Positions 4,355 through 55,116 of a stretch of 64,000 nucleotides of DNA are shown in pieces. Origin of the DNA: Candidatus Marinacidobacterium sp. (lineage in GTDB: Bacteria; Acidobacteriota; Vicinamibacteria; Marinacidobacterales; Marinacidobacteraceae); the NCBI GenBank assembly GCA_965262645.1, contig CBDHFO010000010.1:418-64417 (forward strand), read 5' to 3'. Under the pieces are notes generated by a model that was not told the DNA's origin, searched no databases, and was given only the letters and a program-made list of their open reading frames with translations. Each line of letters begins with the position of its first letter. The stretch's first letter is position 1. The position numbers and the translations under genes were made by a program.

Positions 4355-4870
4355 CCCGATGCCGATCCAGAGGCGCACATGTGACATCGGAGTCGATGTG
4401 CAGGAAAACGCGTTTCGGACGTGCACGGCACCGGTTCCGCAAGTTGCGGAACGGCTTGGGGTTGTGCCACGGCCATCGGAGCGGCGAGGCCGAGCGGGAC
4501 CTCAAGGCCGTGGACGGGAGTGACCCCCCATCTCGGCATGCCTCGATCGGCATCGGGGAGGATGGCGATGTGCATCCCCATCTTCCCCTACGCTGCGGGG
4601 TCACTCCCATCCAGCAGTCCCGTGCGGGAAGGCCACGGCGAGCCGTGACGGGGGCTCGTCCCGGTCTTGCTGGGCGATGCCGAACAGCCCGACGGCCACG
4701 CGGTCGGCCAACGGGTCCTCCTCCGCCTAGAAGCCGCGCTCGACACCCTTCCGGGACGGATCGCTGGTTCGGGAGCGACCCCTGGTCGGCAGGGGCGAGG
4801 GTGTGAAAACACGCTCGGCGCTATGCCGCACCGAGCCCTCGGCGAGGGGGGTCGCTCCCGCCACGGCCGG
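4355..4870. repeat. Conserved structured non-coding block, copy A
   Basis: 4355-4670 aligns with 7932-8250 and 4750-4865 with 10300-10410; nested inverted repeats GGGAG(T/C)GACCC...GGGTC(A/G)CTCCC. Confidence 0.7.
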
Positions 4871-5354
4871 TGCGGCCGGTCCGGCAACCGACGGGCGGGC
4901 CGCATGGCCGCAGGACGTTGCGGGCGCGGCGGATACGCGCCCGCCGCCATGTGAATCGCCGGAGCGCAGAATCGTGAAACGACCCCCCGTGTCGTTTTCA
5001 CGCTCCAGTGCGGCCCAAGTCGGAGCGGTCGGGCACCGTCCAACCCGCCTCCGGCGAATGCACCCATTGTCCGCGGCACCCGCGTTCCGCCCACACTCCG
5101 TGGGGTGCCGGACTGACCGGCCTCCAAGACGAAAACAGCGCTTCGTGGCTCGGACGGCGGGCAAGCCCGAAGTGTCTCCACGGTTGGTCGGGCCAACCGG
5201 CCCACACGATTCGCGGCAAGCACTACTGCGTCGATGGCGATGGAGTTTCAACGGCCTCCAGGCGGTCGAAGTGACCGCCGACGGCGCCTTGGACCCCGCT
5301 GCCGAGAACCGCCCGCAGGGTGTCGTCGGCGACCGCTTCGAGGGGCGTCCCCAA

Positions 5355-5397
5355 GGCTGGCTCCTGACCCGGTATTGGCCGGGAGCCAGCCTACCCC
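5355..5397 (-). other. Left half of an oriT split by element B (attL)
   Basis: IR GGCTGGCTCC...GGAGCCAGCC followed by TACCCC, where homology to intact oriT copies stops. It resumes at 14582. Confidence 0.75.
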
Positions 5398-5489
5398 ACA
5401 AATGCTATGAAGTCTGCATCTTACTGTAGAGTTTGGAGTTACAGGCTTGGCGGTCCTGATTCCCGCCGATTGGTTACCGCCGATTCGGA

Positions 5490-6656
5490 TCAGGCCCGAC
5501 CGTTGCGGCGGCGGTTGTCCAGAGCCTTCCTGAGTTGTACCGCGTCGGGTTGCTGATAGCAGCGCAGCACCGTCTGAGCCTTCTTCCAGCCGCCAAGCTC
5601 GCAAAGCACCTTGAGCGGCAGGTCCATGAGATCGGAAGCGAACTTGCGACGGAGCGAGTGCCAGCCCCGTCCCCGCCTCGGCTCCAGTCCCGCGAGGGTC
5701 TCCGCCTTCTTCCACCACTTGTGGGCGGCAACGCGGCTCATGCAAAGCGTGGCATCCCTCGGCGACGGCAGCACCGGGCCACTCGTGGTTCCTTCGCTCC
5801 TGCTTCGTGCCTCTTCCAAGGCGGCGACCGCCTCGGCGGTAAGGGGTGTTACGTGCTCGTAGCCGGTCTTCTCGTGCTCCGCGCGCCACCGGACCTCGCG
5901 GCCCTCGATGTCGATGTCATCCCAACGGAGCTCGCGGATGGCACCGATCCGGTGCCCGGTCTCGTGCGCGAGCACGAGCGCGACATGGAACCGCCAGCCG
6001 ACCTGCCGGGAAACCCCGAGCAGCGCCTGGTATTCGTCCTCGGTGAGGACGACCCGGTTGGGATTCTTCTCCTTGGGCTTTCTGAGGCCCTTGAGCGGGT
6101 TGGAGTCGAGGAGCAGCCGTCCGTGTTCGTCCCTTGACCTTGCGGCCCAGTTGAGCACCGTCATCAGGAACGTCAGGTCCCATTCGATCGTCCGGTTGCC
6201 TACGGGCTTGCCCGAGCGTCCGGCCCTGCCCGCGCGCCGTTCCCGGATGAACCGATCCCAGTCGCGCTGCGACAGTGTTTCGGGTCTTCGGTCCCGTCCG
6301 AAGAAGCGGAGGAACATCCTGGTCGCGACCCGGTCGCGCTGGCGCGTCCGTCTCCCCTTCGTGGGCGTCACCTCTTCGCCGTAGATGTCAAAAAGCGATC
6401 CCAGCCTGAGCGGCTCGGGCTCGGCTTCGGCCTCGCCGTTCAGGCCCGGCCCCGCGAAGCCCGCGGCGAACTCGTCCGCTTGCCGCTTCGCGCGCGACCA
6501 GTCGCGGTGTTTGAGGGACCGGGTGAGCCTGCGCCCGTTCTCTCGCCACTCGATCTGGAAAATGCCGGTCTTGGCATCCGGAAACACCCGGACCCGGTTC
6601 CGGCCCCATTCGCCAGCGCCGTAGGAGCGCCGACTTCGTTTCGTGCGTGCCATCAT
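5490..6656 (-). CDS. Tyrosine recombinase/integrase (element B)
   Basis: R (GHRIGAI), K (HEKTG), HSLR, GGW, catalytic Y (RCYQ). The start MMARTKR is inferred from the paralogue at 584. Confidence 0.93.
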   Translation of the reverse strand: MMARTKRSRRSYGAGEWGRNRVRVFPDAKTGIFQIEWRENGRRLTRSLKHRDWSRAKRQADEFAAGFAGPGLNGEAEAEPEPLRLGSLFDIYGEEVTPTKGRRTRQRDRVATRMFLRFFGRDRRPETLSQRDWDRFIRERRAGRAGRSGKPVGNRTIEWDLTFLMTVLNWAARSRDEHGRLLLDSNPLKGLRKPKEKNPNRVVLTEDEYQALLGVSRQVGWRFHVALVLAHETGHRIGAIRELRWDDIDIEGREVRWRAEHEKTGYEHVTPLTAEAVAALEEARSRSEGTTSGPVLPSPRDATLCMSRVAAHKWWKKAETLAGLEPRRGRGWHSLRRKFASDLMDLPLKVLCELGGWKKAQTVLRCYQQPDAVQLRKALDNRRRNGRA

Positions 6657-19722: not shown

Positions 19723-21110
19723 TCGATAAGGTATGGCGGGAGGACTTCCTGCTGGCGGCATGGGCGCTGGTCCGGCGCAACGGCGGAGCGGCTGGAGTGG
19801 ATGGTGTGACGGTCGCGGATGTCGTGGTGCATGAAGTGGAGCGCTGGGTCGGGGAACTGTCGCGGGACCTGAGGGAAGGCACCTACAAGCCGAGTCCGGT
19901 GCGACAGGTGCTCATCCCGAAGAAGAAGCCGGGGAAGTTCCGTCCCCCGGGCATCCCATGCCTGAGGGACCGGGTTGCGCAGACGTCGGCGATGCTGGTG
20001 CTGTCGCCGATCTTCGAGGCGGACCTGGAGCCGGAGCAGTACGGATACCGGCCGGGACGAAGCGCCAAGGACGCGGTCAGGCGGATCCACCGCCTGCTGC
20101 ACACGGGCCGCAACGAAGTGATCGACGCGGACCTCTCGAACTACTTCGGCGAGATACCGCACGCTGAGTTGATGAAGAGCATCGCGCGGCGCGTAAGCGA
20201 CGGACGGATGCTTGGACTCATCAAGGCGTGGCTGGAAATGCCGGTGTTAGAGGAGGACGGTAAGGGCGGCACGCGCCGCACGAACCGGGCGCGAAAGGAA
20301 AGGAGGGGGACTCCGCAGGGAGCCCCGATCTCGCCGCTGTTGAGCAACATCTACATGCGGCGGTTCATCCTTGGCTGGAAGGCGCTGGGTCATGCCCGGC
20401 GCTTTGGTGTGGAGATCGTGAACTATGCGGATGACTTCTGTGTGCTCGGGAAGGCCCCGGCGGCGGAGATGCTGGCGGTGGTCAACCGGCTCATGGAACG
20501 ACTAAAGCTACCGGTCAACGCGCGGAAAACCCGATGCCTCCGATGCCCCGAGGAGCCCCTTGAGTTCCTCGGGTATTGCATCGGCTGGAACTATCGACCG
20601 AAGGACGGGAGCCGGTACATCGGCACACGGCCGAGCAGGGCGAGCGTTCAGAGCATCTGCCGCAGGATCAGCGAGCAAACGGACTACGGATATGGATGGC
20701 TGGAAGCTGAGGAAGTCGTAGGACGCCTGAACCGGATGATGTCGGGATGGGCGAACTACTTCAACCTCGGACAGATCGGCCCAGCATACAGGGCTGTGGA
20801 CCGGCATGCGATCGGGCGGCTGCGACGGTGGTTCTGTCGGAAGCACAAGGTGCGATCGGGGGGATACGTGCGTTTTCCCGACCAGCGGCTGTGGAAGCAC
20901 CACGGCCTTACGCGCCTGGGGCTGACGACCATGTACCTTCCGTGGGCGAAGGCGTGATCCCAACTGAGAGCCCGGTGCGGGAAAACCGCACGCCGCGTTC
21001 GACGAGCAGGGGCTGGAAACGGACCTATGGGAGACGAACTATGCACCGACGCGAAAGCGTGCGGAGGATGCCGTGTCCCCTAAGGGCACCGCGCCAGCCC
21101 TTGACTCTAC
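19723..21110 (+). mobile_element. 5'-truncated group II intron; RT/maturase 19723-20957, domains V-VI 20965-21110
   Basis: GIP..RDR, DADL..YF, GTPQG, YADD; DV GAGAGCCCGGTGCGGGAAAACCGCACGCCGCGTTCG; end CTCTAC. No endonuclease domain evident. 5' part lost at the IS boundary. Confidence 0.9.
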
Positions 21111-21350: not shown

Positions 21351-22998
21351 GGCGGGCTTCGCTCGGCGAGCCGAACCTCAGTGGCCCCGAGCCACCATCC
21401 TCCCGAACCGTGCTGAGCAGCATCGGGAAACAGCCTGTAAATGGTAACACCGAACTCAAGCATCGGGAACACTGAGTCTTGTCCAACGGCATGTGAGCCT
21501 GAACGGGGATCCGGTTTCCAGCGGGGAGTGAGCCTGAAGCGCGGGGCGAAGAGATCATTGGAGGATGATCGTGACACTTCGCACCGAACGGATACGGACC
21601 CTCGACCGACTCCGCGCCTTTCTTGAGGGCAATGAAGCCGCGGACTTCCAGCCCACCCACCGCGACTCCGCGTACGCCCTCGTGCGCCGGACGCTGGTCC
21701 GCTTCGAGTACCATGGCCTCGGGAAGCCGGCCAAGGGCCTGGTGAAGCGGTACATCGAGAAGGTGACCGGCTTCTCCCGGTCCCAGGTCACCCGCCTCAT
21801 CCGGCAGCACCGCCGGACCGGACACATCCGCGACCACCGCGGGAAGCCCCCGGCCAACGCTTTCGCGCGCCGCTACACCCCCTATGACGCGGCCCTCCTG
21901 GCCGAGGTTGACGAGGCTTTCGGCCAGCTCTCCGGACCCGCGACCAAGGTGATCCTGTGGCGCATGTGCCATGTCTACGGCGACGCGCGCTTCGAACGCC
22001 TCGCCCACATCTCGAACGGCCACATCTACAACCTCCGCAAGAGCCGGGCGTACCGGACCGGCCGCCTGACCCTCCGCGAGACCCGGTCCACGCCCGTGGG
22101 CTTCGGGATGCGCCGCAAGCCGCGGCCGGACGGAAGGCCCGGCTTTCTGCGCGTCGACACCGTCCACCTCGGCGATCTGGGTGGCCGCAAGGGTGCCTAC
22201 GTCATCAACGTCGTCGACGAAGTCACGCAGTTCCAACACCTTGGAGCCGTCCCGCGCATCACCCAGCAGTTCATGGTCCCCGTGCTGAAGGACCTCATCT
22301 CCGCCTTCCCCTTCACCGTCCGGGCCTTCCACGCCGACAACGGCTCCGAGTACATCAACCGCGAGGTCGCCGACCTGCTCAACCGGCTCCACATCCCCAC
22401 TTTCACCAAGTCCCGGCCCCGCCGCTCGAACGACAACGCCCTCGTCGAGTCCAAGAACGGCTCCATCGTCCGCAGGTGGCTCGGCCACATCCACGTCCCC
22501 CACGATCTCGTCCCCCAGGTCGACGCCTTCCTCCGGGACAGCCTCTGCCCCCTCCTCAACTTCCACCGGCCCTGCCTCTTTCCCACCGAGGTCACCAGCG
22601 CCAGCGGCCGCGTCAGGAAGACCTACCGGCAGGACGATGTCGCCACACCCTACCAGCACTTCAGATCGCTCGCCGGCGCCGAAGACTTCCTCCGGCCCGG
22701 CGTCACCTTCGAAGCCCTCGACCAACTCGCTTCCACCACCTCCGACCTCGACGCCGCCAAGGCCGTGCAATGCGCCCGCGATGCCCTCTTCCGTGCCATC
22801 GGCCAGGCCAGAGACTCCGCCGCATGAACCCCTCTCCGCCGGCCGCAGGCTCACCGGTGACCCTCCCGCGTCTCCGGTATCCGCTCGCTTACCGGTTGCC
22901 TCTCTCCGCTGTTCAGCGGATAATGACAAACACTTCAACTGCCACCTGCCTCGTGCCTGGGGCTCGTCCCTCGCCCTTCAGCCCTCCCCGCGTTCAGG

Positions 22999-24260
22999 CT
23001 TGTCTGTCCTATTTCAACCTTCTCTCCAAGGTTTGGGTTTCCGGGCCCGCAAGGGAGAGCCCGGCCCTTCGGCGCCCCGCGGGGCGCCGAAGGGGGACGG
23101 TGGTCGGGCCGTTTCAGGCTTGGCCGTGAGGGGCCGCAGATGAGTTTGGTCGCCACCGTCCTTCCCTACGTCCTGAATGGATACCTGAGCATCAAGGCTC
23201 GCATGACAAGCACAGGAGAGGGGAAGACATGACCCACCATACCGTCGGGATCGACATCTCGAAAGCCCGGCTCGACGCCTACGCCGCCCCCGAGGGCCGG
23301 GCGGCTCGGTTCTCGAACGATGCGGCCGGGTTCCGGAAGCTGATCGCCTGGATCGGCCCCGAGGCCGTCCGCGTCGCCTACGAACCCACCGGGCCCTTCC
23401 ACCGCGACTTCGAGGATGTCCTGCTGAAGGCTGGACTTCCGCTGTACGCGATCAACCCGTACCAGGTACGGTGCTTCGCGCGCTCCCAGGGACGCCGCGC
23501 CAAGACCGATGCCGTTGATGCCCGGACGCTGGCGACGATGGCGGGGGCAATCGACGATCTGCGCCCGACCCTGGCGAAATCCCCGACCCAGCGGGATCTC
23601 ACGGAACTGCAGATGGTGCGCGACTCGCTGGTCGCGGACTGGACCGCCATCGGCAACCGGGGCAAGCATTTGCGCCACGCCCGGGCCAAGTGGTTCAACA
23701 AACTCCGGCTGGCACAGATCAAGCGCCAGCTGAAGGGCGTGGACGCCGAGATCCAGAAGCTGCTTCGAAGCGATGGGACCCTGGACCGCAAGTCGGAGAT
23801 CCTGACCTCGATCCCCGGCATCTCCACTCTCACCGCTGCGGGGCTGATCGTCCACATGCCCGAACTGGGCACCATGACGGGCCCCCAGGCCGCCAGCCTC
23901 GCTGGGCTGGCGCCGGTGACGCGGGAGTCCGGCATATGGCAGGGGCGCAGTTTCATCCAGGGAGGAAGGGACAAGGTCCGGCGGCTCCTCTACATGCCCG
24001 CCCTCTCCGCGATCCGCTGCAATCCCGACCTCAAGCGGAAGTACCAATCGCTCCTCGACGCCGGCAAGCCGCCCAAGGTCGCCCTCACGGCCGTCATGCG
24101 GAAGCTCATCGTCCTGGCCAACGTCCTCGTCCAGCAGGATCGCCTCTGGACGCCGAAGCCGCAGCGGGCTGCCTGACATGCGCTCTCGAGGCATCGCCCC
24201 GCGCCGCCAGACCTCCGAGCGAATCGGCTCCCAACACTGGTCCCTTGACACATGGATACT
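22999..24260 (+). mobile_element. IS110-family element (copy 1); DEDD recombinase 23229-24176
   Basis: GIDISK, EPTG, KTDAVDA, RESG; CT core at 22999-23000 and 24259-24260; TTGACA near the right end. Confidence 0.92.
23040..23220 (+). ncRNA. Bridge RNA of IS110 copy 1
   Basis: Target loop TTTCAGGCT (23112-23120) / AGATGAG (23138-23144) matches flank GTTCAGG-CT-CATCT. Donor loop ATGGATAC (23177-23184) / GACAAG (23205-23210) matches circle junction ATGGATA-CT-TGTC. Confidence 0.88.
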
Positions 24261-24289
24261 CATCTCCGTGTTGGAAATGACTCACTGCT

Positions 24290-24430
24290 GCTCCGGTCGT
24301 CGTTCCGCTATTGGGCCGCCGAGGAAACGGACCACCCGCGCGAGGTCGTGGCGGCGGCGCTGGCGCACGCTGTCCAGAACGAGGTCGAGGCGGCGTACCG
24401 TCGCAACGATCTGTTCGGGGAATTGCCGGG
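24290..24430 (+). pseudogene. C-terminal fragment of a P4-like integrase
   Basis: RSSFRYWAAEETDHPREVVAAALAH...VEAAYRRNDLF. Confidence 0.7.
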
Positions 24431-40687: not shown

Positions 40688-41538
40688 CTAGCAGCGATAA
40701 CTGGCTGACAGATTTGCCATTGGAGGACTGGCACGGAGTATCAATGAACACTGGCGGCCGTGTGCGGATCCTGAATCTCGTCACTAACGGCTTGGCCGGT
40801 CCGATTCCTCCGGATATCGGAGCCCTGACCAAACTGGAGTCGCTGGGCTTGGCTGACAACAACCTGACAGGTCCGATTCCCCCGGAAATCGCAAAGCTGC
40901 TCGAATTAAAGGTCTTGTGGCTCCATTTGAATAACCTGACAGGTGAGATTCCCCCGGACATCGGAACTCTGACGAACCTAGAGAGCCTGTTACTAGCCCT
41001 CAACAACCTGACGGGCCCGATTCCCCCACAACTCGGAAACCTGATCAACCTGCGGACATTGGTCCTCGCCGACAACGCCCTGACGGGCCCGATTCCTCCA
41101 GAACTCGGAAACCTGATCGAATTGACGCACTTGTGGCTCCAGGGAATCGCCTTGACGGGTCCGATTCCGTTGGAACTCAGAAACCTCACCGCGCTCAAAT
41201 CCTTCCTCTACTATAACACCAGCCTTTGCGTTCCCGACGACGACTCCTTCCGCACATGGCTGAATAACATCCCGGACCACCAGGGAACCGGAGTAGACTG
41301 CAAGGCATCTAGTGGATTTCGCGACGATTTTTCCTCCTCGGCAAGTCTTTTCAACTGGACGCTAAAGGGTGCACGTGCCACCATATCCGATGGTGCCCTG
41401 AGTCTGACAGAAGACAGCACTTCATGTGCCAGTGCATTTAGAGATCACGACGGGAAAGGCTGGGATGTAAAGGAGCTGCGGATGCGTGCAGCCAGCACTG
41501 AGAGCATCGGTTTGGTAGTGTTGCGCTTCGACGTAGAT

Positions 41539-43284
41539 GAGGTAGGGCCAAAAGGTGTGTAAAAGGAGAGACGGCGTACCTTTCAATCGGTGACATCACT
41601 CACACGAGCCGGGGAGGAGACCCCGGGAAAGGAACGCCGTCTCATGAAGGAAGCTACGCAGGGAAGCAGGTGGAAGTCCAGTGATGTGTGGGAGACGCTG
41701 GAGCAGATGGTGCGGGGGAGGGTGCAGGAGTTCATCCAGGAGATCCTGGAAGACGAGGTCACGGAGTTTCTGGGCGGCCGGGCGAAGTCGCAGCGCAGGG
41801 CGTCGGTCGAGGGCGGGCCGAAGGGATACCGCAACGGGTACGGGAAGCCGCGGAATCTGACGTTGGCCTCGGGGACCGTGGAGGTGTGCCGGCCCCGGGT
41901 CCGCGACGTGGAGGAACGGTTCGAGAGCCGGGTGCTGCCGCTGTTCGCGCGGCGGACGAAGGAGGCGGCCGAGCTGGTGGTGCAGCTGTACCTGCACGGC
42001 CTGGCCGAGGGGGACTTCGAGTTGGCCCTGCGGGGTCTGCTGGGGGACGGGGCGCCGCTGTCGAAGTCCACGGTGCGCCGCCTGCGGGAGCGGTGGGTCG
42101 CGGAGCACGCCGCGTGGGAGCGCCGCTCGCTCGCGGGCCGGGAGCTGGTCTACGCCTGGGCCGACGGGATCTATGTGAAGGCGGGCCTCGAGAAGGACAA
42201 GGCGGCCCTGCTGGTCGTGATCGGAGCCATGGCGGACGGCACCAAGGAAGTCCTCGCCGTGGCGCCGGGCTTCCGCGAGTCGGCCGAGTCGTGGGCCGCG
42301 GTGCTGCGGGGCCTCAAGGCCCGGGGGCTCGGCGTGCCGAAGCTGCTGGTGGCCGACGGCAACCTGGGCATCTGGGCGGCGGCCCGGCAGGTGTGGCCGG
42401 AGGCCGGGGAGCAGCGGTGCTGGAACCACAAGATGGCCAACGTCCTCGACCGTCTGCCGAAGCGCGAGCAGGCGGAGGCGAAGCGGCGGCTGCGAGAGGT
42501 CGTGTACGCGGAGTCGAGGGCCGGGGCGGAGAAGGCTCGCGACGCCTTCGGGGACCGCTACGGCGACACGTATCCCAAGGCGGTCGAGATCCTGGCCGGC
42601 GACTGGGGCCGGATGACTGCGTTCTACGACTTCCCCGCCGGGCACTGGAGGCACCTGCGCACGACGAACGTGGTCGAAAGCCCGTTCGCGGCGGTGCGGC
42701 TGCGCACGTCGGCCGCCAAGCGGTTCAAGAGGGTCGACGGCGCCACGGCGCTGATCTGGAAGCTCCTCATGGTCGCCGAGAAGCGGTTCCGGAAGCTCAA
42801 CGCCCCCCACCTGCTACCCGGGGTGCTCGCGGGCAAGCGGTACGCCGACGGCAAGCCCGTCCCCGCACAGGAACAGCGCGCGGCCTGACGACGGTCCACG
42901 AACCCCGGTCCGTCCAGCGCGGGCCGCCGAAGGACGGGGCGCACCAGAGCCGCCCGGGGGACCGTCGCGGCAAGACTCCGAGCCGCCAACATCGCCCGAT
43001 CGCCAGCGAATGGCCGGTTCCCGGCGAATCCGGCCCGCAGAGGCCCGAGAATCCGTCCCCAGAGGCCGCCCGCTTGCCTTCGGCCTACCCTTACCCCTCG
43101 GCAAATCCGGTCATTCGCTCCCACGCATGCCGTCGCAACCTCTCGTTCTCACCTTGATTGTCGCTCGATAGCGGACACCCCCGGCTGGCCAGAACGAAGA
43201 AGAAAGACTATCCTGAACAGACTACCAAACGTCACCGAACGGGGTCACGCCCGCCGACGTTTACACACTTTTTGCCCCAACCTC
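41539..43284 (+). mobile_element. IS256-family element; transposase ~41644-42888
   Basis: IRs GAGGT(A/T)GGG(C/G)CAAAA(G/A)GTGTGTAAA; 8-bp TSD ACGTAGAT; RNGY, WADG, QRCWNHK, LRTTNVVES. Confidence 0.93.
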
Positions 43285-43709
43285 ACGTAGATTCAACAAC
43301 CACATTCGATGCGTTGTTTGGCAACACACCAAGCGTGTTTAATACCAACAATTTCTATTTCCGACGTAACAACGTAGTCCAAGAGCGCGGGTATTTCTCT
43401 GCGATTGATGTTGCACCTCGAGAGTTCATGGATTTCTCCCTCAGTGTCGATCAAGGGGTAATCACGGTGCACGTAGGGGATCAACTTATTTTCCGCACTG
43501 CGGAGTTTGGTAGCCCTCGAATAGTGAATTACGGAATGGCTGTTTGCTCAACAACAGATGATAGACATCGATCTGGCTTGTTCGACTGGTATGAAGCGAA
43601 CAACTCTCGTAGTAGTGTGGGTGCCGAGTTGCCAATGGAACGAATCGAAAGCGTTCGTGACTCGCCCATAAGACAAGGCGTAGAGTTACGCCGCATAAGC
43701 TTATCAGAC

Positions 43710-43855
43710 GAGGTAGGGTCAAAGGGTGTGTAAAAGGAGAGACGGCGTACCTTTCAATCGGTGACACCACTCACACGAACCGGGGAGGAGACCCCGGGAA
43801 AGGCACGCCGTCTCATGACGGAAGCTACGCAGGGAAGCAGGTGGGAGTCCAGTGA
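43710..43855 (+). mobile_element. Left end of a second IS256 copy (truncated)
   Basis: Near-identical to 41539-41684. Confidence 0.85.
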
Positions 43856-43877
43856 CAGTCTTGTCCAACGACAAATG

Positions 43878-45139
43878 AGTATCCATGTGTCAAGTATTCG
43901 GTCTGGAGTGACTCCGGACTGAGGCGTGGCACGCCGGTGTGAGAGGAGCGAAGGTAGCCATGTCAGGCAACCGCAGCCGACTGCGGTTCCGGGGTCCAGA
44001 GGCGGTCCTGCTGGACAAGGACGTTGGCGAGGATCACGAGCTTCCGCATGACCGCCGTGAGCGCGACCTTCGGCGGCTTGCCGACGGCAAGCAGGGCCTC
44101 GTATTTCCGCTTGAGGTGGGGATTGCAGCGGATCGCGGCCAAAGCGGGCATGTAGAGCATCCGCCGCACCTTCTCCCTTCCGCCCTGGATGAAGCTGCGC
44201 CCCTTCCAGGTGCCGGACTCGCGGGTAACCGGCGCCAGCCCAGCGAGGCCGGCGGCCCGGGGCCCGGTCATCGTACCGAGTTCGGGCATGTGGACGAGCA
44301 GCCCCGCGGCGGTGATGCCGGAGATGCCGGGGATCGAGGTGAGGATCTCGGTCTTGCGTCTCAGAAGCTTCTCACTTCGGAGCAGCTTCTGGATCTCGGC
44401 GTCGACATCCTTCAGATGGCGCTTGATCTCGGCCAGCCGACTGTCGTGGATCCCCTTGGCCAGAGGATATCGCAAGTTCTTGCTCCGGTTGATGATGGCA
44501 GTCTTCTCTGCGATCAGCGCATCGCGCACCAACTGCAGTTTGGAAAGCTCACGCTGGCTCCGGGACTTGCCCCGGGTCGGGCGCAGATCGTCGATCGCGG
44601 CCGCCATGACTGCCAGCGTGCGTGCGTCGATAGCGTCCGTTTTGGCGCGCGGTCCCAGCGACCTGGCGAAGCACCGGACCTGGTAGGGGTTGATCGCGTA
44701 CAGAGGAACCTCCGCCTTCAACAAGGCTTCCTCGAAGTCGCGGTGCCACGGGCCAGTGGGCTCGTAGGCGACCCGGTCGAGCTCTGCCCCTATCCAGTTG
44801 ATCAGCTTCCGGAACCCGGCCGCGTCGTTCGCAAAGCGGGCGGCCTTGGCTTGGGGTGCGGCGTAGGTGTCGAGTCAGGCTTTCGAGATGTCGATCCCGA
44901 CGGTATGGTGGGTCATCTTCCCTTCTCCTGTGCTTGTCATGCGAGCCATTATGCTCAGGTATCCATTCAGGACGTTGGGAAGGACGGTGGCGACCACACT
45001 GCTATACGGCCCGTAGACGGCCAAGCGCTAGACGGCCCGACCACCGCCCCCCTTCGGTGCTCCCGCGGGAGCACCGAAGGGCCGGGCCCACCCCACGGAC
45101 CCGGAAATTCAAATCTAGGGGTGAAATGGAACAGACAAG
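43878..45139 (-). mobile_element. IS110-family element (copy 2); recombinase pseudogene 43963-44916
   Basis: Paralogue of copy 1; codon 14 is TGA (CGG in copy 1); CT core at both junctions. Confidence 0.9.
44925..45105 (-). ncRNA. Bridge RNA of IS110 copy 2 (different target guides)
   Basis: Same scaffold and donor guides as copy 1; target guides TCTAGCGCT (45024-45032) / ATAGCAG (44999-45005). Confidence 0.85.
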
Positions 45140-45974
45140 CCTGGGCGGGGAGCCGGTTTCCAGCGAGAGATGAGCCCGAAGCGCGGGGCGAAGAGATCAT
45201 TGGAGGATGATCGTGACACTTCGCACCGAACGGATACGCACTCTCGACCAGATCCGGGCCTTCCTGGACGGTAGCGAGCCGACGGACTTCAGGTTCGGCG
45301 GCAGGGACTCCGCCTACGACTTCGTCCGCCGGACGCTGGTCCGCTTCGAGTTCCATGGCCTCAAGCGGGATGAAAAGGGCCTGGTAAAGCGCTTCATCGA
45401 GAAGGTGACGGGCTACTCGCGGTCCCAGATCACCCGCCTCGTCAAGCAGCACCGCCGGACCGGGGGGATCCGCGACCACCGCAAGAAGCCCCCCGCCAGG
45501 CCCTTCGCGCACCGCTACACCGACCTTGACGCCGCCCTGCTGGCCGAGGTCGACGAGGCCTTCGGCCAGCTCTCCGGACCCGCGACCAAGGTGGTCCTGT
45601 GGCGCATGTACCATGTCTACGGCGACCGGCGTTTCACACGGCTCGCCGGCATCTCAGGAGGCCACATCTACAACCTCCGCAGCAAACCGGCTCACCGCCT
45701 ATGGTGAGCAGTGCCCTGCGGAGCTCCGACGCTGAACTCCACCAAGTGAACCCGAAGGACGTTGACCGTCTGGGTGCGCTGGCGCACCAGAAGATCAGCG
45801 TCACTACATTGCATGGTCGGTCGCAGCGCCGCTTCCTGAATCTCCTCCGCGTCCCCTGCGTCGTTTCTCTTGCCTCTTTACAAAGGGCTTCACGTACGTC
45901 GGACGAACAGTCTCACTTCGCTGCCGAGGGTCATGACCTCTCGGCCCCAATAGTGGGCGCTACACTAGGACTAG

Positions 45975-47631
45975 GAGTCTGCGCCGCAGAAAACCGCAGC
46001 CGCTATCTTTAGAGGTAGCGAAGACATTTGGAAGGTTTGCGGTTGACCGAAGGGGGGGTCAATGGGAACGACGTTTCGTCCGTACCATCCGGACCAGATT
46101 CTGATGCTGCCTCCAGATCTTCGGGAGTGGGTGTCGGAGGGTCATTTGGCGCACCATGTGAGCGACCTGGTGGACGCGGTGGACCTGAGCGCGTTCTACG
46201 CGCCGTACCGTGGGGATGGGCGGCGCAACTCGCCGTACGATCCGCGGATGATGGTCAAGGTGCTGATCTATGCGTATGCGACGGGCACCTTCTCGTCGCG
46301 GAAGATGGCGAAGAGGCTGGAGGAGGATGTCGCGTTTCGGATGCTGGCCGCGGGGAACTTCCCGAAGCACCGGACGCTGTGCGAGTTCCGCAAGCGCCAT
46401 CTTGGGGATTTCCGGGCGGTGTTCGCCGAGGTGGTGTTGCTCGCACGGGCCTTGGGGTTGGCCGGGCTTGGCAGGGTATCGGTGGACGGGACGAAGGTCC
46501 GGGCCAACGCGAGCAAGCGCAAGGCGATGAGCTACGGCCGGATGGTGAAGGAGGAGCCTCGGCTGGAGGAGGAGATCCGGGCGCTGAAGGCGGAGATTGA
46601 GGCGCTGGTGGAGAAAGCCGAGGCGGTGGACGAAGCGGAGGACGAGCGCTACGGCGAGGAAGCTTGCGGAGACGAGCTGCCGGAGGAGCTGAAGCGGCGC
46701 GAGGACCGGCTGGCGGCGATCCAGGCGGCGAAGGCGCGTCTGGAGGCCGAGCAGAGCGCGATGGACGACGCGCGGGGCCGCAAGCCGGGACAGAAGCGCA
46801 ACCCAAAGGGAGGCCAGCCCTACAAGCGGAAGTACGGCGAGCCGGACGAGAAGGCGCAGAGCAACTTCACCGATCCGGAGAGCCGGATCATGAAGACGAG
46901 TTCGGAGGGGTTCCAGCAGAGCTACAACGCGCAGATGGCGGTGGAGGGGGAGAACCAGCTGGTGGTGGGGGCCGAGGTGACGGACAACGCGAGCGACCAG
47001 GGCCAGCTGGTCCCGATGGTCGACGCGGTGGCGGAGACGTGCGGCGAGACGCCGGAGCAGGTGCTGGCGGACGCAGGCTATTGCAACGAACCGGACCTGC
47101 AGGCGCTGAAGGAGCGGGACATCGACGGGTATGTGGCTCTGGGCCGGGAGGGCGGGACCGCTGCGGCCGTTGATGCGGACGAGCATCCGGCGAAGGCGCG
47201 CATGGCCGAGAAGCTGGAGAGCGACGAGGGCCGGAGGCGGTACGCACGCCGAAAGTGGATGGCGGAGGCGCCTGTCGGCTGGATCAAGGAGGTGATGGGC
47301 TTTCGACGATTCAGCTTCCGGGGCCTCGAGAAGGTCCAGGCCGAGTGGACCCTCGTGTGCCTCGCCCTCAACGTCAAGCGGATGCACACCCTTCAGGCGG
47401 CATGAGCGGCCGCCCCGGCCATCCGCAACCTGGCCGACTGAGCCTCCGCGGACCTTCCGGCACGCCGAAAACGCCGCCGATCCCCGAATACCCACCGAAT
47501 TCGACAGTCGAACGACTCGTGCGACCCGAAACCGCTGATTCCCCATCGAACTCGCAGAGGACCTCGGCACCGAAGTCACGGTCCACCCGGTCGGCCACCT
47601 CCGCACGCTGTGCGTTCTAGGGCGCAGACTC
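45975..47631 (+). mobile_element. IS1182-family element; transposase 46062-47405
   Basis: IR GAGTCTGCGC / GCGCAGACTC; CTAG flanks; paralogue of the 16609 copy. Confidence 0.92.
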
Positions 47632-55030: not shown

Positions 55031-55039
55031 GGGCAGCGT

Positions 55040-55116
55040 CTTCGCTCCGCGCTTTGGGCTCATCTCTCGCTGGAAACCGGCTCTCCGCTTGGACTCATTT
55101 GTCGTTCGACAAGACC
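55040..55116 (-). mobile_element. Isolated, unoccupied left end of the ISNCY-like element
   Basis: Matches 43857-43879 joined to 45140-45195 without the IS110 (...GGA-CT-CATTTGTCGTTCGACAAGAC). Confidence 0.8.

Follow-up and report, generated by a model that had tools for sequence, protein, structure and literature searches.

A bridge RNA-encoding IS110-group element occupies a site outside its own target program and may have been placed by a sister's target loop

We analyzed a 64,000-nucleotide (nt) stretch of DNA from Candidatus Marinacidobacterium sp. (here called the window; contig CBDHFO010000010.1, positions 418 to 64,417). The window is an insertion sequence (IS)-rich part, with 65% G+C, of the 66-kb contig C10 of a 4.93-Mb assembly in 17 contigs that is 90% complete. 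It contains two IS110-group elements, copy 1 and copy 2. In the IS110-family element IS621, the two halves of the target-binding loop of the bridge RNA read the left and right flanks, and the two halves of the donor-binding loop read the element ends (PMC11208160). We found that copy 2 does not match the site that it occupies. Its target guides, TCTAGCGCT and TATAGCAGT, jointly predict TCTAGCG-CT-GCTAT(A), whereas the element sits in GCCCAGG-CT-CATTT, within a terminal repeat of another IS. The same loop is cognate to sites at which its lineage is found elsewhere, its donor-binding module is shared with copy 1, its insertion position is identical to that of copy 1 in a homologous repeat, and the window copy has undergone private decay. 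The explanation that we favor, and to which we give about an even chance, is that copy 2 was placed by the target loop of a sister element programmed for the inverted repeat of the host IS. We infer the borrowing event and the identity of the helper from one natural locus and indirect support, and neither is proven.

Copy 1 and copy 2 are the only IS110 elements found in the whole assembly by blastn and tblastn. They share 82% nucleotide and 78% amino acid identity, with a dN/dS ratio of 0.26 over 314 codons, and are thus two diverged elements rather than duplicates of one IS. The copy 1 protein matched PF01548 (DEDD_Tnp_IS110; 83.9 bits) and PF02371 (Transposase_20; 67.6 bits), and residues 15 to 317 of copy 2 matched the same families at 68.8 and 67.7 bits, all four scores being above the cutoffs. 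Copy 1 also scored 197.9 bits against NF033542, "IS110 family RNA-guided transposase" (cutoff, 140), and the closest solved structures were ISCro4 (9t56; E = 9e-32) and IS621 (8wt6; E = 3e-29). The copy 2 frame is interrupted solely by a TGA at codon 14 (44877 to 44875); the remainder of its 317 codons is open. The CT cores of copy 2 lie at 45138 to 45139 and 43878 to 43879.

In both copies, an RNA region of ~170 nt lies at the left end, upstream of the recombinase and co-oriented with it. The RNA of copy 2 has a predicted folding energy of −92.5 kcal/mol (z = −3.1), and that of copy 1, with the same predicted architecture, −102.4 kcal/mol (z = −4.8). The 5′ stem shows compensatory changes between the two RNAs. 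A consensus drawn from 14 relatives contains 32 pairs, has compensatory changes at 5 of these, and leaves the guide segments in unpaired loops. An Rfam scan of positions 20000 to 47000 at E ≤ 1 matched no bridge-RNA family, and guides were placed by the alignment of copy 1 with copy 2 and by their coordinates. An initial annotation, made from the sequence alone, had claimed that copy 2 keeps the scaffold and the donor guides of copy 1, and the alignment agrees: both copies carry the same donor guides, AATGGATAC and CATGACAAG. In each, AATGGATAC matches the right end ...CATGGATA-CT, and the reverse complement of CATGACAAG matches the left end CT-TGTC... The terminal 15 nt of the right end and the first 9 to 10 nt of the left end are also the same, and the copy 1 donor loop would thus recognize the ends of copy 2.

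This sharing extends beyond the window. The left donor guide is the same in 14/14 aligned relatives and the right donor core in 13/14, and the element tips are common to the whole clade. With one donor module and one set of tips across the clade, the circle of copy 2 would be a legitimate donor for any sister's RNA, so that a sister RNA could insert it. In addition, a perfect TTGACA lies 6 to 11 nt from the right tip of both copies (copy 2, 43888 to 43893, minus strand; copy 1, 24245 to 24250, plus strand) and is kept in every relative whose right end was read. From its placement, it could serve as the −35 element of a putative promoter that forms only in the circle junction; the −10 candidate across the junction, 17 nt downstream of TTGACA, is weak.

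The target guides behave differently in the two copies. Copy 1 guides fit their own flanks, GTTCAGG-CT-CATCT, at 8/9 positions on the left and 7/7 on the right. Copy 2 guides fit their own site at 4/9 and 4/7, and the CT core supplies 2 of the matches on each side; at the 12 non-core positions, there are 8 mismatches. The same site fits the guides of copy 1 better (6/9 and 6/7), and these values are inside the range of natural cis pairs. The initial annotation had reported both the discordant program and these counts, and our scoring reproduced them. Between the RNAs of copy 1 and copy 2, 8/13 non-core guide positions differ, compared with 19/156 of the other bridge-RNA columns (Fisher one-sided P = 1.2e-4).

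To characterize guide-flank fit more widely, relatives were gathered from the same genus, the phylum, metagenome contigs, and genome contigs, and all were scored by one script. The left fit was 6 to 8 of 9 in the 15 other elements for which nine bases of left flank were available, which makes copy 2 the lowest of 16; two elements with shorter flanks fit at 6/6 and 4/4. The right fit was 5 to 7 of 7 in 12 other elements, besides one decayed element whose core is mutated and that fits at 4/7, with which copy 2 ties for lowest. The mismatch at copy 2 exceeds chance. Between the first 230 nt of copy 2 and its own site, there is no identical stretch of ≥7 bases on either strand, and no half-match of the copy 2 RNA arms to the site was found (left donor [LD], 1/7; right donor [RD], 2/5; left target [LT], 2/7; right target [RT], 2/5). 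With 4/9 and 4/7 and no arm that matches the site, self-insertion by base pairing or by half-match is ruled out.

Other forms of self-insertion can be envisaged. Copy 2 might have arrived through an off-target event, or its recombinase might have sensed a structure of the repeat that is recognized by both of the 78%-identical proteins. Precedents have been reported: a target-encoded stem-loop adds to the specificity of ISPpu10 (10.64898/2026.03.19.712850), and 27/168 IS621 sites were classed as matching no guide (10.64898/2026.08.31.748434). However, guide-flank fit is the rule among the relatives, the CT core plus 2/7 and 2/5 flank positions alone fit the copy 2 guides, and the insertion coincides with that of the sister in both base and orientation. 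We therefore consider self-insertion quite improbable.

The address itself is shared by the two elements. Copy 1 and copy 2 interrupt homologous terminal repeats of an rve-type IS, and the base and the orientation of insertion are the same for both. Thus, the site of copy 2 is the homologous position of its sister's target, as first annotated, and an empty version is present in the window at 55039 to 55116. When the flanks of copy 2 are joined, they restore the host IS left terminal repeat exactly; both junctions are clean, with single CT cores. In its own genome, the sequence that copy 2 is programmed for, TCTAGCG-CT-GCTATA, had no occurrence at ≤1 mismatch in 15 and one unrelated match at 2 mismatches. 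A near-cognate site, AAGAGCG-CT-GCTAT, is found at C17:1610403.

The repeat sites of the genome (n = 8) were read in the IS110 orientation (Table 1). A variant of the host IS with 76% identity is present twice on contig C11 (C11:1282-2900 and 4650-6290), and 4/4 of their terminal repeats are empty; the right repeats on this contig differ from the copy 1 guide at two positions only, yet they are unoccupied. Among Pfam families, the host IS protein matched rve alone (33.4 bits; cutoff, 32.6), and it scored below the NCBIfam cutoffs for IS481 (54.5; cutoff, 224) and IS3 (38.7; cutoff, 160). The label ISNCY initially given to the host IS could not be confirmed from the rve match.

Shared ends would allow for a second route to this address. 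The circle of copy 2 could have recombined with the end of a resident sister through the shared donor loop, forming a tandem from which the sister was later lost. Ends and donor loop are indeed common to the whole clade; insertions that match one donor arm only, as well as donor-donor reactions, have been reported (10.64898/2026.08.31.748434), and tandem IS110 modules are described as common (10.64898/2026.08.14.744561). This route, however, requires two steps and the precise loss of the resident sister, and under copy-out models, excision leaves the resident in place. No remnant of a second element lies beside copy 2, where the junctions are clean and the CT cores single. We regard this route as improbable.

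To follow copy 2 in other samples, contigs of four public runs (X1, X7, X5, and X2), from four studies, were aligned to positions 43600 to 45400. The same element is present in contigs of three other studies at ~98 to 99% identity. Compared with the window copy, the X1 element is ~99% identical (11 differences in 1,021 bases) and the X7 element ~98% identical (23 in 1,070). Contigs that cover both guides (44963 to 45079 and 44967 to 45079) have 0 differences, and the target loop is identical in X1, X7, and X5. Read in the IS orientation, the right end continues as CT-GCTATTCTCCCT in X1 and as CT-GCTATGCGAGG... in X7. These right flanks are the predicted CT-GCTAT (5/5) at two different loci, and a search for their letters in the own genome of copy 2 gave no match. 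Reading the flanks of other elements that carry the copy 2 loop, a check proposed with the initial annotation, thus supported the predicted target in its right half only. The exact empty form of the copy 2 site, a joint from 43877 to 45138 that skips 1,260 positions, was found in X1, X7, and X2; the X2 contigs do not extend over the ends of the element.

At position 44875, X1 and X7 have C rather than T, and codon 14 is TGG, not TGA. A protein search found, in other assemblies, an intact 317-amino-acid recombinase (P0002) that is 96% identical to copy 2 and has Trp at position 14, along with two further 317-amino-acid cluster members (contigs of 4.6 Mb, 4.2 Mb, and 0.3 Mb). Collectively, these sequences indicate that the copy 2 loop is a working program in its lineage and not a product of decay. 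Random decay of a once-matching loop is ruled out, given that live relatives carry an identical loop and that the scaffold is conserved.

At nine coding sites, every other run with coverage differs from the window (X2 is uncovered at one), and at 9/9 of these sites the window copy is derived relative to copy 1 and the relatives L013 and L040. Six of these private changes alter an amino acid, one is the nonsense change, and two are silent. The nine derived private states argue that the nonsense codon is private to the window copy and arose late; by these comparisons, the lineage is live, and the window copy is one of its members that has decayed. The description of copy 2 as a "dead IS110" in the initial annotation holds for the TGA at codon 14, but the lineage itself is alive.

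These alignments also bear on whether the locus has been altered or misassembled. Copy 2 and X1 have 0 differences over the left end (45052 to 45140), and the loop and the right end are also colinear with the lineage. A post-insertion mosaic with a resident sister, one of two cases that the initial annotation had listed as refuting its proposal, is accordingly disfavored, with the loop preserved in X1, X7, and X5. The other case was an assembly chimera; an artifact could also take the form of an error in the loop consensus between 82%-identical copies. The locus lies on an IS-rich contig of 66 kb in an assembly of 17 contigs, and among the X5 contigs listed, none bridges the left junction. One X5 contig, however, covers 43749 to 44218 with 0 differences and runs through the IS256 fragment, 20 nt at the start of the repeat, and the right end of copy 2, which disfavors a chimera (X5 may be the source sample and is not fully independent). 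Moreover, the loop region is reproduced with 0 differences in contigs of three runs, and the flanks rebuild the repeat precisely. We consider an artifact very improbable.

Closer relatives of copy 2 were sought in 16 genomes of the genus, 61 relatives, and 401 genomes of the phylum, and none exceeded 75% nucleotide identity; the best relative in metagenome contigs had 71% amino acid identity. Exact-pattern scans for the copy 2 loop in genome and metagenome contig collections gave 0 matches, in collections from which the window's own records were possibly left out. Three relatives, L013, L017, and L040, have loops (TCACGGGCT / TTTAGCAGT) that agree with the copy 2 loop at 14/18 positions. These elements, from acidobacterial and Gemmatimonadota-type assemblies, target CACGGG-CT-GCTA and occupy matching sites.

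Target loops programmed for repeats occur in several branches of the clade (copy 1, L042, L045, and L035). L045 (positions 1240 to 1310), from a Gemmatimonadaceae assembly, is inserted at the same base of a homologous rve-type IS terminal repeat (compare window positions 21478 to 21560), and its right guide reads CT-CATTT. Its position in another phylum argues that homing of IS110 elements to this repeat is conserved across phyla. The guides of L035 (positions 90 to 125), a truncated distant relative with 45% amino acid identity, predict TTTCAGG-CT-CACATG, which is exactly the empty left repeat at 21478. Overall, the clade spans Acidobacteriota and Gemmatimonadota assemblies and combines one invariant donor module with at least five target programs. 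In runs X5 and X2, the summed depth of the donor loop at 44881 to 45002 is ~1900 to 2900, compared with ~9 to 30 elsewhere in copy 2, and the contigs part exactly at the start of the right target guide (loose ends at 45000). This depth and divergence point to communities in which relatives that combine the same donor module with other target loops are numerous and abundant. Separately, a genome of the same genus (G014) carries three related IS110 copies (L003, L009, and L011) with a common upstream conserved segment of ~60 nt; the segment suggests that they also home into a repeated element (GGGGTCG-CT-CCCT), and L003 at least has an internal stop in the recombinase frame.

A protein tree was built from 12 full-length relatives, leaving out the partial L041, L042, L043, and L045, as well as L017. 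In this tree, copy 1, copy 2, the pair L013 and L040, and the L050 group form an unresolved fork. Three-way informative sites suggest a possible mosaic history. At most diagnostic sites outside the guides, copy 2 falls with copy 1 and L042, and at 4/5 sites within them, it falls with the CACGGG clade. This pattern raises the possibility that copy 2 was reprogrammed in place. A founder with a repeat-matching loop would have inserted itself, its loop would then have been replaced by short-patch gene conversion from a CACGGG-CT-GCTA-type relative, and the reprogrammed founder would have seeded cognate copies elsewhere, stayed behind, and decayed. The patch would be no longer than ~55 nt, with conserved scaffold on either side. 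A change of program necessarily happens in a copy at an old-type site, and copy-and-paste models keep the donor copy in place (10.1101/2025.10.25.684509; 10.64898/2026.08.31.748434). On the other hand, the sole observed copy would have to be the founder of a lineage whose presence now extends to three or more other studies. At 44504 and 44798, the window copy and X1 have derived states in common that X7 lacks, which argues that the window copy is nested rather than basal unless it served as a long-lived master copy. In addition, this genome has no CACGGG-type donor, and with the fork in the tree, the diagnostic pattern fits a loop change on the branch of copy 1 and L042 equally well. Replacement of the loop in place is thus, in our view, unlikely.

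Placement by a sister's target loop, the explanation that we favor, would proceed as follows. Copy 2 would derive from a live IS110 lineage with a bridge RNA programmed for ...-CT-GCTAT sites and would have integrated at the fixed repeat position addressed by the program of a sister lineage (that of copy 1, L035, and L045). The sister's bridge RNA, or its target-loop half alone, with either recombinase, would synapse the junction of the copy 2 circle with the repeat and insert the circle. The helper could have been copy 1, which is intact and 20 kb away, or a better-fitting relative; an unseen sister with a better match is as possible a helper as copy 1. Later decay in place would account for the change of TGG to TGA at codon 14 and at least eight further private substitutions. 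The lineage of copy 2 is not machinery deficient, having an intact recombinase and a cognate loop elsewhere; if trans-guided, copy 2 would be a competent cross-guided element and not a miniature inverted-repeat transposable element (MITE). The initial annotation had proposed natural trans-mobilization at this locus. The shared donor loop and a program unfit for the site stand, while the role of copy 1 as helper and the borrowed-loop route are hypotheses.

Several observations weigh against placement by a sister's loop. The evidence for the borrowing event and for the helper is indirect. Copy 1 guides mismatch the copy 2 site at three distal left positions and one right position, and better copy 1 sites are empty in the same genome, namely, the C11 right repeats (GTTCATG-CT-CATCT) and the left repeat at 21478. 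Confirmation of the predicted target by the X1 and X7 copies extends to its right half only, and no other donor copy of the copy 2 type was found in the assembly, which is 90% complete. Since the fork in the protein tree is unresolved, the ancestral state of the loop cannot be polarized. By analogy with ISPpu10, for which circle-specific junction promoters are reported (10.64898/2026.03.19.712850), the promoter outline seen here would favor use of the element's own RNA. Lastly, among the X5 contigs listed, none covers 45081 to 45137 or bridges the left junction at 45139/45140.

Known trans activities make cross-guided insertion plausible. Bridge RNA acts in trans in Escherichia coli assays (PMC11208160), ISPpu10 integrates a left end (LE)-cargo-right end (RE) substrate in trans (10.64898/2026.03.19.712850), and a MITE-like element with ISPpu9-like ends has been proposed to use the ISPpu9 transposase in trans (PMC12288879). 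A trans-acting bridge RNA has also been inferred for ~800-bp elements without a 5′ region (10.64898/2026.08.14.744561).

The locus is nested within other mobile elements. An IS256-like element (41535 to 42888) encodes a Mutator-family transposase of 432 amino acids (188 bits), and a second IS256-like piece (43706 to 43855), a 150-bp 5′ fragment with 95% identity, is severed by the insertion of host IS no. 2. The copy 2 locus therefore has three nested layers, an IS256-like element, the rve-type IS, and the IS110-group element. A DDE_Tnp_1/DUF772 transposase of 447 amino acids (46062 to 47405, plus strand) lies where the frame of host IS no. 2 ends (~45740), and its element probably truncates that IS. 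Just upstream of host IS no. 1, positions 20966 to 21110 (plus strand) gave a subthreshold match to the group II intron catalytic domain model RF00029 (30.2 bits; gathering score, 40; E = 0.023).

TABLE 1 Coordinates of the two IS110-group elements, their guides, and the repeat sites of the host IS
Feature	Position	Strand	Description
Copy 2, IS110-group element	43880..45139	−	1,260 bp including one CT core; left end 45139, right end 43880
Copy 2 recombinase frame	43963..44916	−	317 codons; DEDD_Tnp_IS110 and Transposase_20
Copy 2 bridge-RNA body	44917..45088	−	Fold-predicted; 5′ stem-loop, then target-binding and donor-binding stems, each with an internal loop
Copy 2 left target guide	45024..45032	−	TCTAGCGCT; 4/9 against the actual left flank
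Copy 2 right target guide	44998..45006	−	TATAGCAGT; predicts CT-GCTAT(A); actual CT-CATTT (4/7)
Copy 2 donor-binding loop	44933..44967	−	AATGGATAC (44959-44967), inner hairpin, CATGACAAG (44933-44941)
Left target half used by copy 2	45140..45146	−	GCCCAGG, in the host IS left terminal repeat
Right target half used by copy 2	43873..43877	−	CATTT, in the host IS left terminal repeat
Copy 1, IS110-group element	22999..24258	+	1,260 bp; intact 315-amino-acid recombinase at 23229-24176
Copy 1 target-binding loop	23112..23145	+	Left target guide (LTG) TTTCAGGCT (23112-23120); right target guide (RTG) CAGATGAGT (23137-23145)
Host rve-type IS no. 1	21478..24295	+	420-amino-acid transposase, 21565-22827; left repeat empty, right repeat holds copy 1
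Host rve-type IS no. 2	43860..45707	+	Left end from 43860, split by copy 2; 166-codon transposase-frame remnant, 45207-45707
Third left-repeat fragment of the host IS family	55039..55116	−	GCTTGGA-CT-CATTT; empty
Host IS no. 1 right repeat			GTTCAGG-CT-CATCT; occupied by copy 1
Host IS no. 2 left repeat			GCCCAGG-CT-CATTT; occupied by copy 2
Host IS no. 1 left repeat	21478		GTTCAGG-CT-CACAT; empty
Contig C11, two left repeats			GCTCATG-CT-CATTT; empty
Contig C11, two right repeats			GTTCATG-CT-CATCT; empty

Bridge recombinases, whose life cycle in nature is still being elucidated, are under development for genome writing. This locus provides a concrete, testable case of guide sharing between co-resident relatives, and it calls for caution in surveys in which the loop of each element is compared with that element's own flanks to infer targets. 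It also offers a possible account of how an IS110 lineage survives in hosts without its target, and the clade supplies a naturally occurring series of orthogonal target loops on a single scaffold. Tentatively, and with somewhat less than an even chance of being right, we propose that IS110 sisters with the same donor loop and the same ends constitute a "guide commons," in which any circle may be sent to any co-resident address. If this is true, an element without its own target in a new host could establish itself via a sister's target loop, and target specificity would be a property of the resident pool rather than of the element. Terminal repeats of companion ISs would then act as a shared safe harbor conserved across phyla, and copy 2 would be the first natural footprint with an internal control, in the form of a working but unused guide.

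The two elements resemble IS621 and ISCro4 in both protein domains, in a left-end RNA upstream of the recombinase, in a 5′ stem-loop and, after it, a pair of stems with internal loops, and in their CT cores. Unlike those systems, two diverged sisters here share one genome and a common donor loop while carrying different target loops. The choice of address recalls IS4321 and IS5075, members of the IS1111 group of the IS110 family, which insert at a fixed position and orientation inside the terminal inverted repeats of Tn21-family transposons. In the present case, however, the repeats belong to an rve-type IS, and the association spans phyla (the window and L045).

RNA-guided IS110 recombination, modular loops, trans action, and MITE-type passengers are already known. 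In the literature that we searched, we found no complete sister IS that has its own different working loop and sits at another sister's address; supplementary loop and target tables may hold such cases. Nor did we find in that literature an account of how related elements within one host interact in nature. In the IS621 survey, loops and target motifs mostly differ by 0 to 2 mismatches (PMC11208160), whereas copy 2 has 8/12 non-core mismatches. The half-match reactions described for IS621 likewise account for insertions off the programmed target, through the donor arms (10.64898/2026.08.31.748434); in contrast, the copy 2 site matches 0/4 of the element's own guide arms.

The nearest parallels are MITEPpu9/ssr9 with ISPpu9 and the LE-cargo-RE substrates of ISPpu10. 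As described for these systems (PMC12288879; 10.64898/2026.03.19.712850), the ends of a passenger are read by the donor loop of a helper, and the passenger is sent to the helper's target. The copy 2 event differs in being reconstructed from one natural locus rather than observed. Copy 2 also differs from these passengers in kind, being a complete sister IS with its own working and differently programmed guide, so that the mismatch itself would record which guide was used.

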